Below, piece after piece: positions 35,725 through 43,443 of a stretch of 47,623 bases of DNA. A model generated the notes under the pieces. That model saw nothing but the letters and a program-made list of their open reading frames with translations, did no database searches and had not been told where the DNA came from. Source of the DNA: a phage; the sequence record PZ445468.1; one strand, given 5' to 3'. Position 1 is the first letter of the stretch; every line of letters begins with the position of its first letter. Made by a program: the position numbers and the translations under genes.

Positions 35725-36675
35725 TTATAAATTAAATTGCTTCTTGAACCATTCAGGCGTTTCCATTTCTATGACAGGATTACCTATTGAATAACCCGGC
35801 CACGAATTGGCTTTTTTACACGCCTTGTAAATTTCCATAGCTCCATGCAACTGAATGCGACCGATGCGCAACTGCTCTTCCGTTAATCTAATTAACGCAG
35901 GAATAAACGGTGCTTTCTTTTCCTGAACTAAAAGGTTTACCGAACGAGGCGCATGACCGTATGCCGCAACAAACATATCGTGTTGCATAGCCATTTTCAT
36001 GAAGTAGCCAAGTCGCGCAGCATGTCGGAAAAACTCTTCAGGCTTGGCGCTAACTGCTGTTTTGTAGTCAATGATGTCTCCTCCTTTTGTCAGGCAGTCA
36101 AAGCGAACTTTTGCTTTTTCTCCATTAAGCTCACCGAGAATTGACACTTCAGCATAAGCACCAGCAAGAAGACTGCTGTAATAGCTATTTGCGTGGATTA
36201 CAGCACGCATTTGCTGAATGGATTCATAATCACCACCTTCCAGCATTTGCCTTCCTGCAGCAGATTTTTCAGCCTCTTCACGGATAACATCGTAAATTTT
36301 AACTGGTTCGCCAGTCGCCTGAATGATTTTAATCACCTCAGCCTTCGACTTTCCAGAAAGCCCTTTAATTCCTCGCTCTTTCGCCCATGAGTTCATGTCG
36401 CTCACGGTAACAAGCAGGTCATCACCAAAATCTTCTTTGGTTGGCATGCGAGCATATTCAGCATCAAAACGCTCTGGTTCAAGCAGAGCTGTATGACTTC
36501 CTGTACCGAAGATAAGTGCTTTTGACTGCTCATCTTCTTCGTCTTTGTAGCGCCATGCCGCTGGACAGCGGTCATAAATGTTCCACAAACCAGAGCCATT
36601 AATGTGCTCTGTGTCGGCGTGGTAATCCTCATTACTGAGTTCATTGTTGAAATAGACTTTCATTGTTAACCTCAC
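35725..36675 (-). CDS. PD-(D/E)XK family exonuclease
   Basis: position next to ATPase and SSB; nuclease-like motifs. Confidence 0.5.
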   Translation of the reverse strand: MRLTMKVYFNNELSNEDYHADTEHINGSGLWNIYDRCPAAWRYKDEEDEQSKALIFGTGSHTALLEPERFDAEYARMPTKEDFGDDLLVTVSDMNSWAKERGIKGLSGKSKAEVIKIIQATGEPVKIYDVIREEAEKSAAGRQMLEGGDYESIQQMRAVIHANSYYSSLLAGAYAEVSILGELNGEKAKVRFDCLTKGGDIIDYKTAVSAKPEEFFRHAARLGYFMKMAMQHDMFVAAYGHAPRSVNLLVQEKKAPFIPALIRLTEEQLRIGRIQLHGAMEIYKACKKANSWPGYSIGNPVIEMETPEWFKKQFNL

Positions 36676-36700
36676 TCATCATCACGTAAATGAATCTACA

Positions 36701-37135
36701 TCAATCCACATCAAAAGGCAAGCCAAAATAGAAAAGTGTGGCTTTTTTTAGTTCATCAAGTCCATAAGCGATGGCGGCATAATGACCAAGCCTACACATC
36801 TCTGTTAGCACATCCGATTGCTCCTTGCTCACTCTGCTTTTACTTTTATCGCGGCGCTTTGACTCAATCATTCCGCAACTGTGATTTACACCCGGAGTCA
36901 TTATTACGTTGTCGCCTATTCCAGTCTTAACTCCCATCTTCTGGCGCTTCAGCACAAACTGCACTCTGCTTGATGTGCCAGTTTCGTTTGGTACATGAAA
37001 CCACAGAACATCAGGGAATCGGTGTTGCATCCATGTGCCGTAACCCATCTGGTCAGTCTCCTCTTTAGGACACTCACCACGATAACCGCTATCAAATACC
37101 CATATACCGCTATCAAGCTGCTTCACTTTGCTCAC
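36701..37135 (-). CDS. VRR-NUC domain nuclease
   Basis: 144-aa ORF with D ... E-x-K pattern (GIGDNVI ... GMIESKR). Confidence 0.45.
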   Translation of the reverse strand: MSKVKQLDSGIWVFDSGYRGECPKEETDQMGYGTWMQHRFPDVLWFHVPNETGTSSRVQFVLKRQKMGVKTGIGDNVIMTPGVNHSCGMIESKRRDKSKSRVSKEQSDVLTEMCRLGHYAAIAYGLDELKKATLFYFGLPFDVD

Positions 37136-39050
37136 CTGTAAAATCTTTTCTGTGGATTATGTCTCGGCCTTTATCATTAATACGATGCGTGATGCGTTTT
37201 GGCGATTTAATCAATCCAGCATACATCATGAATTGTTTTGCGTTCTGGCATTTCAGTATTTTCCCAGCCATTGACTTATCATCAAGGTGAGGAAAGATAG
37301 CCTTTGCCTTAAACATGTTTTTCATGTGAGTTGCGCCGCTATAAGGGTAGAAAACCTCGCTAGCCCATCCTTCTTTTCCGTCACAACGATTAATCCAGTA
37401 GCGATATAAAACCCCCTCTCCATCCTTCGTTAACTGAACCTTGAAATCCATAACGTCAGCCCATTCATTATCCGTATACGCACGCTCATTCAGTGCCGCA
37501 TTAGGGTCGCGCAGAACATGATCGCAATGTCGGCAATAACGCGCAGTAGGGTCATTTTTAGTCCCGCAACCATCATCAAAAATCCGTATTCCATGCTTGT
37601 CGAAACCGCAACGAATGTAGCTGAAAAATTCTTCGCATCGACCATCTGGCGATAGTACATCTTTGCCAATGCAGCGGCGCGCATATGGGCTGTTCATTGT
37701 TCCGCATTTCGGGCACGGAACCTGTTCACCACTGCGCCTTGAACGCTGAGCCTCAGCTTCTTCCAGAATCGGGTCTTCATACAGCTGACCAAGCTCAAAC
37801 ATCGTGCCTGAGAAATCAAGAACCAGATGGTCTTCTTTATGATACCCAGCATCAATTTGCTCCTTCTTCAGCAGGCGCATACCGCGACCAAGCAACTGGA
37901 CAAGGAGAGTTAGCGACATTATTTTCCTGAGGATTACGCTTACATCCCATAGCGGAATGTTTACTCCGGTCGTCAGCGCGGCTATCTGGAATGTGTATTT
38001 TATTTTGCCAGTGTACGCATCCTTTAGAGCCTTACGTCTGGCTTTTTGCCCCATATCTTCGGTGACAATAGCGTAGCTACCTTCTGGCAGATATTTAGCA
38101 GCTTCTAAACAATGCTTCTTGCCTGCGCAGGTAATTAACACTCCATTTCTATCTTTTGTAAGCTCCATCACTTTGAGCATGATTTTCTGTGTGAGAGTAC
38201 CTTGCTCAAGGATTTCTTCCTGCATCTGCTTAAGTTGTTCGGCAGTGAAGTCCTGCGTTCCGTCGATATCAGATCCACGGAATGCTGAAAGGTCGTAATG
38301 CAAATCATCAACATCATGAAGGCCAAAGATTGTTGGAACAACAAATCCGCGATCTACCATGTACTTTGTGTCAATGTTTATTATTTCATTCTTCCAGTAC
38401 GCACCTTTCATTGATTCAGTGCCACGGAATGGGCTTCCGGTGAATCCAATTGTTATCATTTCATGACCATGTTTTGCCTTGCATCTCCTGTTAAGTTCCG
38501 TAAGTATTACACCATATTGTGTTGTTGGATTCTCACTAATAATGTCCTGCCACGGAACTTGGTGCCCTTCATCGCACAGGCAAAATCTGGGGGCAAAATC
38601 ACTCAATCCACCTTTCTTAACGTCACCACTTGATTCATCTTTTTTATCAAAAAGTGCGTTAACGATTGTTCCTTCAGTTCCGCATATAATAGGGTATGCT
38701 GTACTTTTCCTGCCAAGAGATGCGCTATAAAGAGAATTTTTTACACCGCACTCCCACATCATTTCAGCATTCTGCTCTGCTATTTCCCCCTGCCTTGAAA
38801 TAACAAGGCCATCCCACCCCATATCCTGAAATCTACTGCAAAGCATTGAAATTATCACGGTCTTTCCTGATGAAACCGACGCTGTAACATAGCTTGGTTC
38901 AGGTTTCTTGCCAAAATTACGAATAACCTCAGCGCACTTTGCGTAAACAAGCCATTGGTAATCATATGGCTCTATGGAGCCTAATTTTATTGATTGCTTT
39001 AACTTCTCAATATTAATCTCTGAAATCATTTTGTCTATTTTGTTCATCAC
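37113..39050 (-). CDS. DExH-box superfamily II helicase
   Basis: Walker A SSGKT, DEGH motif II, C-terminal Cys4 zinc-finger pairs. Confidence 0.75.
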   Translation of the reverse strand: MMNKIDKMISEINIEKLKQSIKLGSIEPYDYQWLVYAKCAEVIRNFGKKPEPSYVTASVSSGKTVIISMLCSRFQDMGWDGLVISRQGEIAEQNAEMMWECGVKNSLYSASLGRKSTAYPIICGTEGTIVNALFDKKDESSGDVKKGGLSDFAPRFCLCDEGHQVPWQDIISENPTTQYGVILTELNRRCKAKHGHEMITIGFTGSPFRGTESMKGAYWKNEIINIDTKYMVDRGFVVPTIFGLHDVDDLHYDLSAFRGSDIDGTQDFTAEQLKQMQEEILEQGTLTQKIMLKVMELTKDRNGVLITCAGKKHCLEAAKYLPEGSYAIVTEDMGQKARRKALKDAYTGKIKYTFQIAALTTGVNIPLWDVSVILRKIMSLTLLVQLLGRGMRLLKKEQIDAGYHKEDHLVLDFSGTMFELGQLYEDPILEEAEAQRSRRSGEQVPCPKCGTMNSPYARRCIGKDVLSPDGRCEEFFSYIRCGFDKHGIRIFDDGCGTKNDPTARYCRHCDHVLRDPNAALNERAYTDNEWADVMDFKVQLTKDGEGVLYRYWINRCDGKEGWASEVFYPYSGATHMKNMFKAKAIFPHLDDKSMAGKILKCQNAKQFMMYAGLIKSPKRITHRINDKGRDIIHRKDFTGEQSEAA

Positions 39051-39622
39051 CTACTCCTGCTAAAATCACCGTGTAATGATTTTCTATATTTCTTTATGGC
39101 GTTACCTGCTTCCTCTGCTGTATTAAAGTAACCAAGATTAAATCTCCTGCCGTTAACCGCTATCCTTGCTCTCCACTTTTTACTTTTTGCATCAAAGCCA
39201 ACCCCTTTAAATCCAGATTGGTTATCAATTCTGATTTTCCTATTCATGCAGTTTTCGCTTGGTTTTGCCTCTCTTAAATTTAAGATGGCGTTATTTGATT
39301 TATCTAAGTCGATATGGTCAATCTCAAATTAAGGCCACTTCCCGTTAACATAAAACCATGCAAGTCTGTGGGCCATAAACCTGTATCCACCTATAACTAT
39401 GCGTACATATCCGGTATTCTCAACATATCCAGCTCTCGGTGAGTTACTGTGATTACCATTTCTCCACGTAAAAATTCCTGTTGATTTTTCATAATTAATT
39501 TTTGATTTAAGAAACTCATGGCTTAGCGATGACTCCTTTTGCTTTCTTCTCTCTAAATTTCTTGACTCTGCACCTGACAGAGCAGCACTTCGCCTTTGCA
39601 GTTCCGATGAACTCATTTCCAC
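39047..39622 (-). pseudogene. HNH-AP2 homing endonuclease interrupted by in-frame TAA
   Basis: both halves align to intact paralogue at 47116..; TAA at 39329-39331 sits where paralogue has E/K. Confidence 0.6.
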
Positions 39623-39665
39623 AAACCTCGCACTTCTTTACGGTGATCGCCATTTCATAACCTCT

Positions 39666-39729
39666 ATTGTAACGATTAATTGTTTCATTTCAAGTAACGA
39701 TTGATTGTTTCATGCGAGTAAATTACAAT
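39666..39729. promoter_or_regulatory. divergent promoters with tandem 18-bp repeats
   Basis: leftward TTGAAA-16-TACAAT; rightward TTGATT-17-TACAAT; AACGATT(A/G)ATTGTTTCAT twice. Confidence 0.45.
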
Positions 39730-39760
39730 GATTCTACATCATCGTCAACAGGAAGATTTT

Positions 39761-40714
39761 ATGAGATACGACTGGAAAGACATTGAGCCAAAAATGCTCG
39801 GAAATTGGCAGGCCGCCATCATGTCTATCGTCAATGTGGATAGCAGAGTTTTCAATGGCAAGCACCAGCCATGCCCGTCATGCTCAGGAAAAGACAGATA
39901 TCGCTTTGATGATAACTTCGAAACAAAAGGCGATGGCGGCGCAATATGCAATCAGTGCGGGTCCGGCAGCGGCATGAACTGGCTGATGAAACTTTCAGGC
40001 ATGAACTTCCCTGAAGCACTGGAGGCGCTTGGTGGATTCCTGAACATGCACCCACGCGAAAAGCTGGAGGCAATCAGGAAGGAACTACCGAAGATAAATT
40101 ACAACGATGACTTCATCACCGAGCAGGAAGTAGCCGCAATCATGTCTAAAACGACGCGTGTCGCGATGAGTGAGTGGACTTTGATAAATGGTATTGGTTG
40201 CGACGTTAGCGTCGTCAGAGGGAAATCTGGGGAGCTTATTGCGGTTGAGATGGTGCGCGCTGACACAATGAGTCCGTGCAACGTGGCATTCATTGGCATG
40301 GATGGTGATGCATTCAGAACATTCTACAAAGCAGGATATAACAAAGACTCAGCCATAAACGGCAAACTCACACGAGGCGCGATAAGCCCAATCGGAGAAG
40401 ATAACGGAAAGTTCATTTATCTGGTGTCTGATTATGCCGACGCGTGGAAATGCCATTACTTCACTGGCGCGCATGTCTGGTGCTGCTGGTCGCCGGAAAA
40501 TATGTGGGAAGTGGTGCGCTCGGTTAGCGGTGAGACGAAAGCAAGGTTACGCTGCATAGTTAATTATAAATTTGACGAGCTTTGCGCTGCGGAAAATGCA
40601 GGACTTCCGGTGATGCTGCCTGATGATTCCGACACAATCAGGATGGCGAAGCGAATCAGAAGAAAGATTTATGACGCTGGCGAGTTGATAGAGAAGATCT
40701 CAGTTTGCAGATAA
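39761..40714 (+). CDS. putative DNA primase (zinc-ribbon)
   Basis: N-terminal CPSC ... CNQC zinc-binding motif; AGGAAG RBS. Confidence 0.5.
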   Translation: MRYDWKDIEPKMLGNWQAAIMSIVNVDSRVFNGKHQPCPSCSGKDRYRFDDNFETKGDGGAICNQCGSGSGMNWLMKLSGMNFPEALEALGGFLNMHPREKLEAIRKELPKINYNDDFITEQEVAAIMSKTTRVAMSEWTLINGIGCDVSVVRGKSGELIAVEMVRADTMSPCNVAFIGMDGDAFRTFYKAGYNKDSAINGKLTRGAISPIGEDNGKFIYLVSDYADAWKCHYFTGAHVWCCWSPENMWEVVRSVSGETKARLRCIVNYKFDELCAAENAGLPVMLPDDSDTIRMAKRIRRKIYDAGELIEKISVCR

Positions 40715-42937: not shown

Positions 42938-43084
42938 TCCAACAGGAACTATAGATAAAAAATAAAATTAGCGCAACACAAAACAGGTCTAACCAGCAAT
43001 AATAGCTACCACACTTAACAACTGGTCAGACCACCATCTCGTATCTGATATATGTGGATGGTGCACGTCGTTCAATTTGTGCTC

Positions 43085-43443
43085 GATTTTTACCTAATTT
43101 ACCGTATATTTATTAGTCAGTTTTTTGCATAACCAATTGATTTATATGATTTTACCTGTTTTACCGGAAATCTAATGAGTATTTTCATCATTGAGAGTAG
43201 TAGTATATTAATTGGTCTAATTTTTAAAGAACTCTAATAAAATCAATATATTAATATAAGAAAGTAACTTACTTACTTATATAGGATTTACCGGGTAAAA
43301 CCGGTAACTCCTCCGCAGTCCGCGTCATTACTGGATTGATTTTTACCACCTGTAGGTAAATACAGTAGTTTTTAAGTCAGGATTGTTTTGTAAGATGTTG
43401 ATTACCGGTACTTTATTTGAAAAACCGGGATTTACCGGGTTTT
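43085..43443. repeat. iteron array (TTTACC / ACCGG core), putative origin
   Basis: at least 10 direct and inverted copies of GATTT(T)ACC(G/T), including palindromes TTACCGG-N6-CCGGTAA and TACCGGTA. Confidence 0.55.

Follow-up and report, generated by a model that had tools for sequence, protein, structure and literature searches.

Tandem putative operators of a small zinc-finger reading frame at the head of an inserted homing-endonuclease cassette in Escherichia phage TanjaMuster_Bas81

The stretch of DNA analyzed here, hereafter the window, comprises the entire genome (47,623 bp) of Escherichia phage TanjaMuster_Bas81 (Bas81; PQ850630.1, from whose coordinates 1048 is subtracted to give those of the window). 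This siphovirus is virulent, depends on O16, and belongs to the Skatevirus cluster (PMC11990801). Between its helicase and primase genes lie two near-identical repeats, O1 and O2, that a preliminary description had read as operators coordinating the divergent promoters of the two replication genes. The reading that we favor from sequence comparison, with a confidence slightly better than even, is that the repeats are tandem operators for a zinc-finger protein encoded by an inserted homing-endonuclease cassette, and that this protein represses its own promoter, O2 also covering the -35 element of the primase promoter. The features concerned are as follows.

39669..39688: repeat copy 1 (O1), GTAACGATTAATTGTTTCAT, with the dyad GTAAC-GATTAATT-GTTTC at 39669-39686
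39694..39713: repeat copy 2 (O2), GTAACGATTGATTGTTTCAT, with the dyad GTAAC-GATTGATT-GTTTC at 39694-39711
39666..39693, minus strand: leftward (cassette) promoter, -35 TTGAAA at 39693..39688, 16-nt spacer, -10 TACAAT at 39671..39666, 10/12 match to consensus
39701..39729, plus strand: rightward (primase) promoter, -35 TTGATT at 39701-39706, 17-nt spacer, -10 TACAAT at 39724-39729, 9/12 match to consensus

The two repeats, of 20 nt each, are identical at 19 positions, follow one another with a start-to-start period of 25, and lie in an AT-rich region (GC content 0.40). Each holds the imperfect dyad GTAAC-N8-GTTTC; read in the orientation of the leftward genes, O1 is GAAAC-AATTAATC-GTTAC followed by AAT. 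A search of the 47.6-kb genome that allowed up to three mismatches returned no copies beyond these two, and none turned up in 100 shuffled genomes; the pair is far beyond chance. A whole-genome scan of Bas81 found no further copies of the dyad, and a single dyad locus fits a local autoregulatory circuit. The sole difference between the copies, A at 39678 and G at 39703, converts TTAATT into TTGATT, the primase -35. The tandem repeats lie where the preliminary description had placed them and are slightly longer than its 18 bp, and a consensus scan recovered both of its promoters exactly as described.

The promoters face outward, are of sigma-70 type with proper hexamer spacing, and have functional equivalents in class B relatives and, in the case of the primase promoter, in class C as well (see below). 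O1 occupies the leftward promoter's 16-nt spacer and shares the first three bases of the -10, and O2 starts one base past the leftward -35, its central 8 bp containing the primase -35. Counted from the predicted transcription starts, 39659 for the leftward promoter and 39736 for the rightward one, O1 covers positions -10 to -27 of the cassette promoter; O2 runs from -35 to -52 relative to the cassette start and from -25 to -42 relative to the primase start.

To place this arrangement among relatives, the upstream regions of 55 loci with primase homologues were sorted into classes. Class A carries repeats of the Bas81 type, GTAAC-GATTRATT-GTTTC. In class B the corresponding places are taken by other repeats, AAACTCAGTTGCGTTTCATGT and GAACGCTTGCGCGTTTCATGT, which have a 24-bp period and the form AAC-N8-GTTTC with AACGC..GCGTT. 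The class B leftward promoter, TTGACA-17-TAATAT, occupies the same place as that of Bas81, differs from it and is better, and the class B primase promoter is TTGCGC-17-TACAAT, with a different -35; no variation is seen in the primase -10 among 19 class A and 8 class B sequences. Among the class C phages are some with a primase 96% identical to that of Bas81, yet class C loci have no endonuclease gene, zinc-finger open reading frame (ORF) or repeats; the helicase and primase ATGs are about 75 nt apart, and the only detectable promoter is that of the primase, TTGATG-18-TATACT, at the same distance from the primase ATG. Class C loci (L005 3925-3950 and others) do carry an O2-like string around the primase -35, CTAAC-CTTTGTTGAT-GTTTC (CTAAC-N10-GTTTC), which could be a scar of cassette loss, an ancestor of O2, or chance. 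Class A heads also adjoin primases only 59-66% identical to that of Bas81, a mosaic distribution of the kind expected of a horizontally spreading element.

The same head is found at a second genomic site. In class E (Bas79, HC6, SCNJ1-C and several metagenomic genomes) it lies between a VRR-NUC gene and another HNH-AP2 gene, all co-directional, with no divergent promoter present. The order there is a GTAAy-N8-GTTAC dyad, TTGCAA, a second dyad within the 16-nt spacer overlapping TACAAT, a Shine-Dalgarno sequence (SD), and the zinc-finger ORF, so that TTGCAA-16-TACAAT takes the place of the leftward promoter. At this VRR-NUC/exonuclease junction, which is empty in Bas81 (window 36664-36696), both class E dyads are inside a 670-bp insert (L060 2409-3078), O2 being a few bases from its right end. 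The HNH cassette is thus polymorphic for presence and absence at two genomic sites between conserved flanking genes, and some genomes (L036 and L056) carry two cassettes each. At the primase locus we placed the cassette edge near 39713 because variability in class A jumps immediately right of O2, with 7 of 10 columns variable as against 5 of 48 in the O1-O2 block, which is consistent with an insertion boundary there. On this comparative evidence, the leftward promoter and both repeats are the head of an inserted homing-endonuclease cassette spanning about 39047-39713. The assignment of the leftward promoter to the helicase operon, and of the pair to replication, is not supported: the sites are absent next to primases 96% identical to that of Bas81, and the head recurs at a site that has no divergent promoter.

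In classes A, B, and E alike, one dyad occupies the promoter spacer and the second lies directly upstream of the -35, at a period of 24-25 bp. Within each class both copies have changed together, the arms being kept while the N8 differs. The variant of the zinc-finger ORF tracks the operator class, with ..CEVCGNEFIGTAKA.. in classes A and E and ..CK[HN]CGREF[HY]GT[SA]RAE.. in class B, a pattern that could reflect co-evolution of protein and site.

The candidate binder is the first reading frame of the cassette.

39516..39653, minus strand: zinc-finger ORF of 45 amino acids (MAITVKKCEVCGNEFIGTAKAKCCSVRCRVKKFREKKAKGVIAKP), C8-x2-C11-x12-C24-x3-C28 with a basic C-terminal helix
39660..39665, minus strand: SD of the zinc-finger ORF, AGAGGT, directly abutting the leftward -10

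This ORF, with the N-terminal sequence MAITVKKCEVCGNEFIGTAKAKCCSVRCRVKKF..., is absent from the GenBank annotation; it was missed because the endonuclease ORF overlaps it. Stand-alone versions are rarely called, with 3 matches in a database of 5.8 billion proteins and about 10 relatives of 40-52 amino acids in a full HMMER scan; a scan of bacterial genomes found no homologues. Among 11 diverse homologues the four cysteines and F15, T18, A21, and R34 are invariant, and AGAGG or GAGG is kept upstream in most lineages. A single-sequence AlphaFold2 model (predicted local distance difference test score 81.6) has strands at 5-7 and 14-16 and a helix at 20-39, so that the CxxC would sit on a beta-hairpin, and the CxxxC and basic tail on the helix. 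Judged by its invariant cysteines, conserved SD, and predicted fold, the ORF is a real gene. Pfam gave no match to the 45-residue protein, PHROGs gave only weak matches to zinc modules inside HNH endonucleases, and neither a sequence search of the PDB nor Foldseek with the AlphaFold2 model returned anything significant. The same module occurs as 3-13 tandem copies in about 100 long DUF2116-like proteins (200-700 amino acids; P0004-P0008 and others). Some of these reach the Pfam models for DUF2116 (“probable treble clef”), the NinG N-terminal finger, and Ecl1, and the link of the Bas81 ORF to a DUF2116-type treble clef is transitive only, through these tandem-array proteins.

The association of dyad and ORF extends well beyond the Skatevirus group. 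A tblastn search found the 45-residue ORF in 76 phage records, including unrelated Vibrio, Listonella, Yersinia, and Pseudomonas phages, and pattern scans of viral and metagenomic contigs supplied additional lineages. Fourteen of 16 lineages have the motif G[TA][AT]AC-N8-[GA]TT[AT]C in the 80 nt preceding the ORF, against a background in the same loci of 2.7e-5 per nt, or 0.002 expected per 80 nt. Written as G[TA][AT]AC-N8-GTTAC, the dyad of these 14 takes the place that O1 has in Bas81. The typical layout is a TTGAnn -35, 2-3 nt, and the dyad, whose right arm overlaps a TACnnT -10, as in these five examples:

Example 1: TTGACTtt-GTAAC-cataaatc-GTTAC-agt
Example 2: TTGAACaa-GTAAC-acttgagt-GTTAC-att
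Example 3: TTGAAGct-GTAAC-caagttcg-GTTAC-aat
Example 4: TTGACGgta-GTAAC-gtaacagc-GTTAC-tat
Example 5: TTGACCat-GTAAC-gatttagc-GTTAC-aat

Across these lineages the arms are conserved, but not the N8 or the flanking bases. Since the left arm is no sigma-70 promoter element, its conservation calls for more than promoter function. Dyad and ORF occur together in phages of Escherichia, Salmonella, Klebsiella, Vibrio, and Yersinia and in marine metagenomes. The gene that follows the ORF varies and may encode an HNH_3-AP2 endonuclease, a Skate-type HNH endonuclease, one of two unknown 280-residue families, a C5 DNA methylase, a DUF669/annealing protein, or a YadA-anchor protein; the dyad thus has a single constant partner, the zinc-finger ORF. 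Distant lineages carry one site, the second site (O2) being a feature of the Skatevirus-group cassette.

In the mechanism that we propose, the zinc-finger protein, either dimeric or as a pair of monomers, would bind each dyad, G[TA]AAC-N8-GTT[TA]C. With O1 occupied, the -35/-10 spacer and the edge of the -10 would be covered and the cassette promoter shut off, a negative autoregulation that may keep a potentially harmful nuclease at a low level. O2, 25 bp away and abutting the -35, could stabilize this binding cooperatively at a spacing like that of lambda OR1-OR2, and its occupancy would also damp primase transcription. The center of O2 supplies the primase -35 because the cassette landed back-to-back with the primase promoter. 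Coordinated control of the primase through O2 is possible, and looks like a by-product of where the cassette landed. The operator anatomy of the preliminary description is retained, with dyads about 25 bp apart that overlap core elements of back-to-back promoters at positions kept in diverged relatives; native coordination of the two promoters is not.

Several observations weigh against autorepression through these sites. The role of O2 is the least supported step, and half-sites 13 bp apart center to center are unusual. The zinc-finger ORF has no significant similarity to any characterized DNA-binding protein. L064, L068, and L125 lack a good dyad, and the right arms of class B are degenerate (GTTCT and GTTTA). 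The tracking of ORF variant and operator class fits plain linkage too, ORF and sites being less than 20 bp apart. Class A sites are no more conserved than the adjoining cassette sequence (5 of 48 as against 5 of 36 variable columns), and their conservation may reflect recent spread. We rejected within-class conservation as proof of selection, the whole cassette being low in diversity, and the case for selection rests on comparison across classes and lineages. Finally, since the leftward -10 abuts the SD, the predicted transcript starts after the SD with some 5 nt of leader, and it is uncertain whether a message from its own promoter would yield the proposed repressor. A 6-codon ORF (ATGAAATGGCGATCACCGTAA) would begin at about +1 of the leftward transcript (39654-39671, minus strand), and in L104-L107 and L123 the -10 is followed after 6-8 nt by the zinc-finger ATG, which would give a leaderless-type message.

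The sites might instead be operators for another trans-acting factor, a host protein or a different phage protein, with the zinc-finger ORF merely the first gene under its control. We consider this unlikely. The class A core, CGATTAATT, presumably resembles the AT-rich sites of nucleoid proteins, but it is the arms that are conserved and not the AT-rich center; moreover, the dyad is present nowhere else in the genome and is strictly linked to the zinc-finger ORF across phages of many hosts.

That the repeat is a functionless relic, left by a duplication at cassette insertion or consisting of plain promoter sequence, seems improbable to us. Three diverged classes keep two dyads in register, with conserved arms, differing N8, and copies changed in concert; O2 keeps both arms without leftward promoter hexamers of its own, and the left arm of O1, which is no sigma-70 element, is conserved in distant lineages. 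Such a relic would account for the near-identity of the class A copies, as after a recent duplication, for the similar CTAAC-N10-GTTTC at the primase promoter of cassette-free relatives, and for a within-class conservation that does not rise above the local background.

A related proposal keeps the sites as operators and makes the homing endonuclease itself the binder, in the manner of I-TevI, which represses its own late promoter through an overlapping operator (PMC2988022). The endonuclease of the Bas81 cassette has an AP2 DNA-binding domain, and O1 overlaps the spacer and -10 of the cassette's own promoter. Against this, identical class A sites precede very different endonucleases (a 335-residue Skate type, a 190-residue HNH-AP2 type, and others), and the dyad precedes the zinc-finger ORF also where a methylase or annealing-protein gene follows. 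In Bas81 the sites remain intact beside an endonuclease gene interrupted by a stop codon, albeit through a recent mutation, and we saw no similarity between the dyad and the empty insertion sites. Taken together, these points make the endonuclease quite an improbable binder.

There is very little to suggest that the dyads act as RNA hairpins in read-through transcripts, controlling translation of the zinc-finger ORF or the endonuclease. The class E cassette does lie inside an operon, where read-through RNA would hold both dyads just upstream of the SD, and related zinc fingers (FCS and L24e-like) bind RNA, matches to them here being weak and non-significant. Yet every lineage has the dyad upstream of its predicted transcription start, the hairpins would have stems of just 5 bp and loops of 8 nt, the repeat region folds no better than shuffled sequence (z = -0.31), and Rfam has no match to it.

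A replication origin with the repeats as iterons, which their AT-rich location between replication genes and their direct orientation might suggest, is hardly credible and was rejected, since there are just two copies 25 bp apart, relatives with a 96% identical primase and a homologous helicase lack them, they lie inside a cassette also found at a non-replication junction in other genomes, and the cumulative GC-skew minimum is near 42-43 kb rather than 39.7 kb. The large, AT-rich intergenic region at 42938-43416 (GC content 0.39) adjoins that minimum, has two TCTACRYCA copies just to its right, and makes a stronger candidate for an origin or early control region than does 39.7 kb.

Returning to autorepression by the zinc-finger protein, the comparisons allow a broader proposal, which we advance tentatively and with a confidence just short of even. 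Mobile genes of virulent phages may share a portable regulatory head, made up of a stand-alone treble-clef zinc-finger repressor of 40-50 amino acids and a G[TA]AAC-N8-GTTAC operator in the spacer of its own promoter. This head would serve at least three unrelated homing-endonuclease types and other genes in enterobacterial, vibrio, and marine phages, and in the Skatevirus group the operator would be duplicated, with the primase -35 inside it. We found no published description of such an ORF/operator module, a literature search for the motifs having returned nothing relevant and the BASEL paper offering taxonomy alone.

The rest of the locus consists of the following genes.

39047..39616, minus strand: HNH_3 + AP2 homing-endonuclease gene, opening inside the zinc-finger ORF in the +1 frame; a pseudogene in Bas81
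39329..39331, minus strand: premature TAA in the endonuclease gene; GAA in the near-identical phage contig L108, where the ORF is intact
37113..39047, minus strand: helicase gene, its ATG (39047..39045) overlapping the endonuclease stop codon (TGATG)
39761..40714, plus strand: DNA primase gene, probable true ATG at 39761, SD AGGAAG at 39750-39755

The endonuclease gene matches HNH_3 (E=1e-13), AP2 (E=4e-8), and phrog_99 (E=1e-63) and reads as a single frame with one internal stop. From the comparison with the intact contig, its inactivation is a single, recent GAA-to-TAA change, and this stop codon probably explains the missing locus tag Bas81_0082. The annotated primase start at 39728 falls within the -10 hexamer, and cassette-free relatives have no in-frame ATG upstream of the primase start; the ATG at 39761 is the probable true start. 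An annotation as “RNA-binding protein” in relatives was considered as a possible label of the zinc-finger ORF and rejected, the features under the ORF being “HNH endonuclease” or “hypothetical protein”.

In unrelated endonuclease families, too, the endonuclease ORF begins 22-46 nt past the zinc-finger ATG, within the zinc-finger ORF and in its +1 frame (39516-39622; L063, L064, L066, L090, L092, L100, L101, and L103). Translational coupling, low-level internal initiation, and frameshift fusion are candidate explanations for these internal starts. A programmed frameshift fusing zinc finger to endonuclease has a low probability, and reading of the sequence revealed no obvious shift site for such a fusion.

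The primase promoter also carries an element that recurs across the genome.

39733..39741, plus strand: dispersed element TCTACATCA, 3 nt past the primase -10

The genome has 15 copies of TCTAC[AG][CT]CA, against 0.4-1.5 expected (at 1843, 1939, 6080, 7507, 7536, 10411, 10436, 19157, 19188, 22794, 24851, 36695, 39733, 43518, and 43535), with the fuller form (A/T)(A/T)TCTAC[AG][CT]CA. Twelve or 13 of the 15 are intergenic, mostly in divergent regions, and the element often lies 1-3 nt past a -10-like hexamer or within a spacer, sometimes in inverted or direct pairs. It is probably the phage's own promoter-associated or transcription-start-proximal signal. All classes, the cassette-free ones included, retain the element at the primase promoter, and it is missing from the leftward cassette promoter, which speaks against the shared replication control once proposed for the two promoters. 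Both cassette insertion points sit immediately left of a copy. A 12-nt identity between the primase leader and the 3' end of VRR-NUC, considered as a shared homing target, was rejected as such; it is one copy of this element.

The reading of the locus is corrected accordingly, in that what was taken for the helicase promoter is an import, and that of the primase is one of a separate promoter class found genome-wide. It also illustrates how a conserved small ORF can be overlooked by annotation pipelines owing to a larger overlapping one. If our interpretation is true, a small repressor dedicated to the task, together with a portable operator-promoter, would represent a new way of controlling a nuclease, a selfish insert would have taken over the promoter of an essential neighboring gene, the primase, and a minimal zinc-finger/operator pair would be added to the known phage regulators. 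To our knowledge, control of free-standing homing endonucleases against harm to the phage has been described for only a few T4 cases.

Among known systems, the closest in purpose is I-TevI of phage T4, for which, as proposed also in the case of I-TevII and I-TevIII, transcription is autorepressed via an operator overlapping the endonuclease's own promoter (PMC2988022). Bas81 likewise has a homing-endonuclease gene whose promoter is overlapped by a putative operator that would limit nuclease expression. In T4, however, the endonuclease is the repressor and the operator mimics the homing site, whereas the operator of the Bas81 cassette stays the same in front of different endonuclease families, and a separate ORF of 45 amino acids encodes the candidate repressor. 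The Bas81 promoters are moreover of sigma-70 type and the cassette is free-standing, in contrast to the intron of T4.

The DUF2116-type treble clefs and the N-terminal finger of lambda NinG share the cysteine module KxCxxCGKxF...[FY]CSxxCR with the Bas81 ORF, which differs from them in being a single stand-alone module with a basic tail that falls below every Pfam threshold; we know of no function for DUF2116. The zinc-finger proteins P2 Ogr and P4 Delta are activators of late genes that act at a dyad, TGT-N12-ACA, near sigma-70 promoters. They resemble the Bas81 candidate as small phage C4 zinc-binding regulators at such a dyad, and no sequence similarity of Ogr or Delta to the Bas81 ORF was found with Pfam or PHROGs. 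Ogr has the spacing C-x2-C-x22-C-x4-C and activates many late promoters from about -55, in contrast to the C-x2-C-x12-C-x3-C of Bas81, the dyad within the spacer, and the single locus.

Divergent promoters sharing tandem operators are familiar from lambda OR (PRM/PR) and from P22 immI, where Arc and Mnt operators lie at Pant and Pmnt. The Bas81 promoters are similarly back-to-back, with predicted starts about 77 bp apart and dyads 24-25 bp apart center to center. The position of O1 within the -35/-10 spacer recalls that of Arc at Pant, O2 abutting a -35, and the short or absent leader of the putative regulator's message recalls lambda cI transcribed from PRM. Unlike both systems, Bas81 has two sites rather than three, and its putative regulator is a C4 zinc finger rather than a helix-turn-helix or ribbon-helix-helix protein; there is no lysogeny switch, one of the promoters comes from a selfish insert, and the arrangement is absent in close relatives. 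On these comparisons, the Bas81 system would work like the I-TevI type and like the lambda OR/P22 immI type and is a member of neither, in that its binder is probably a separate zinc-finger protein, its operator does not appear to mimic a homing site, and its arrangement is not native to the replication genes.

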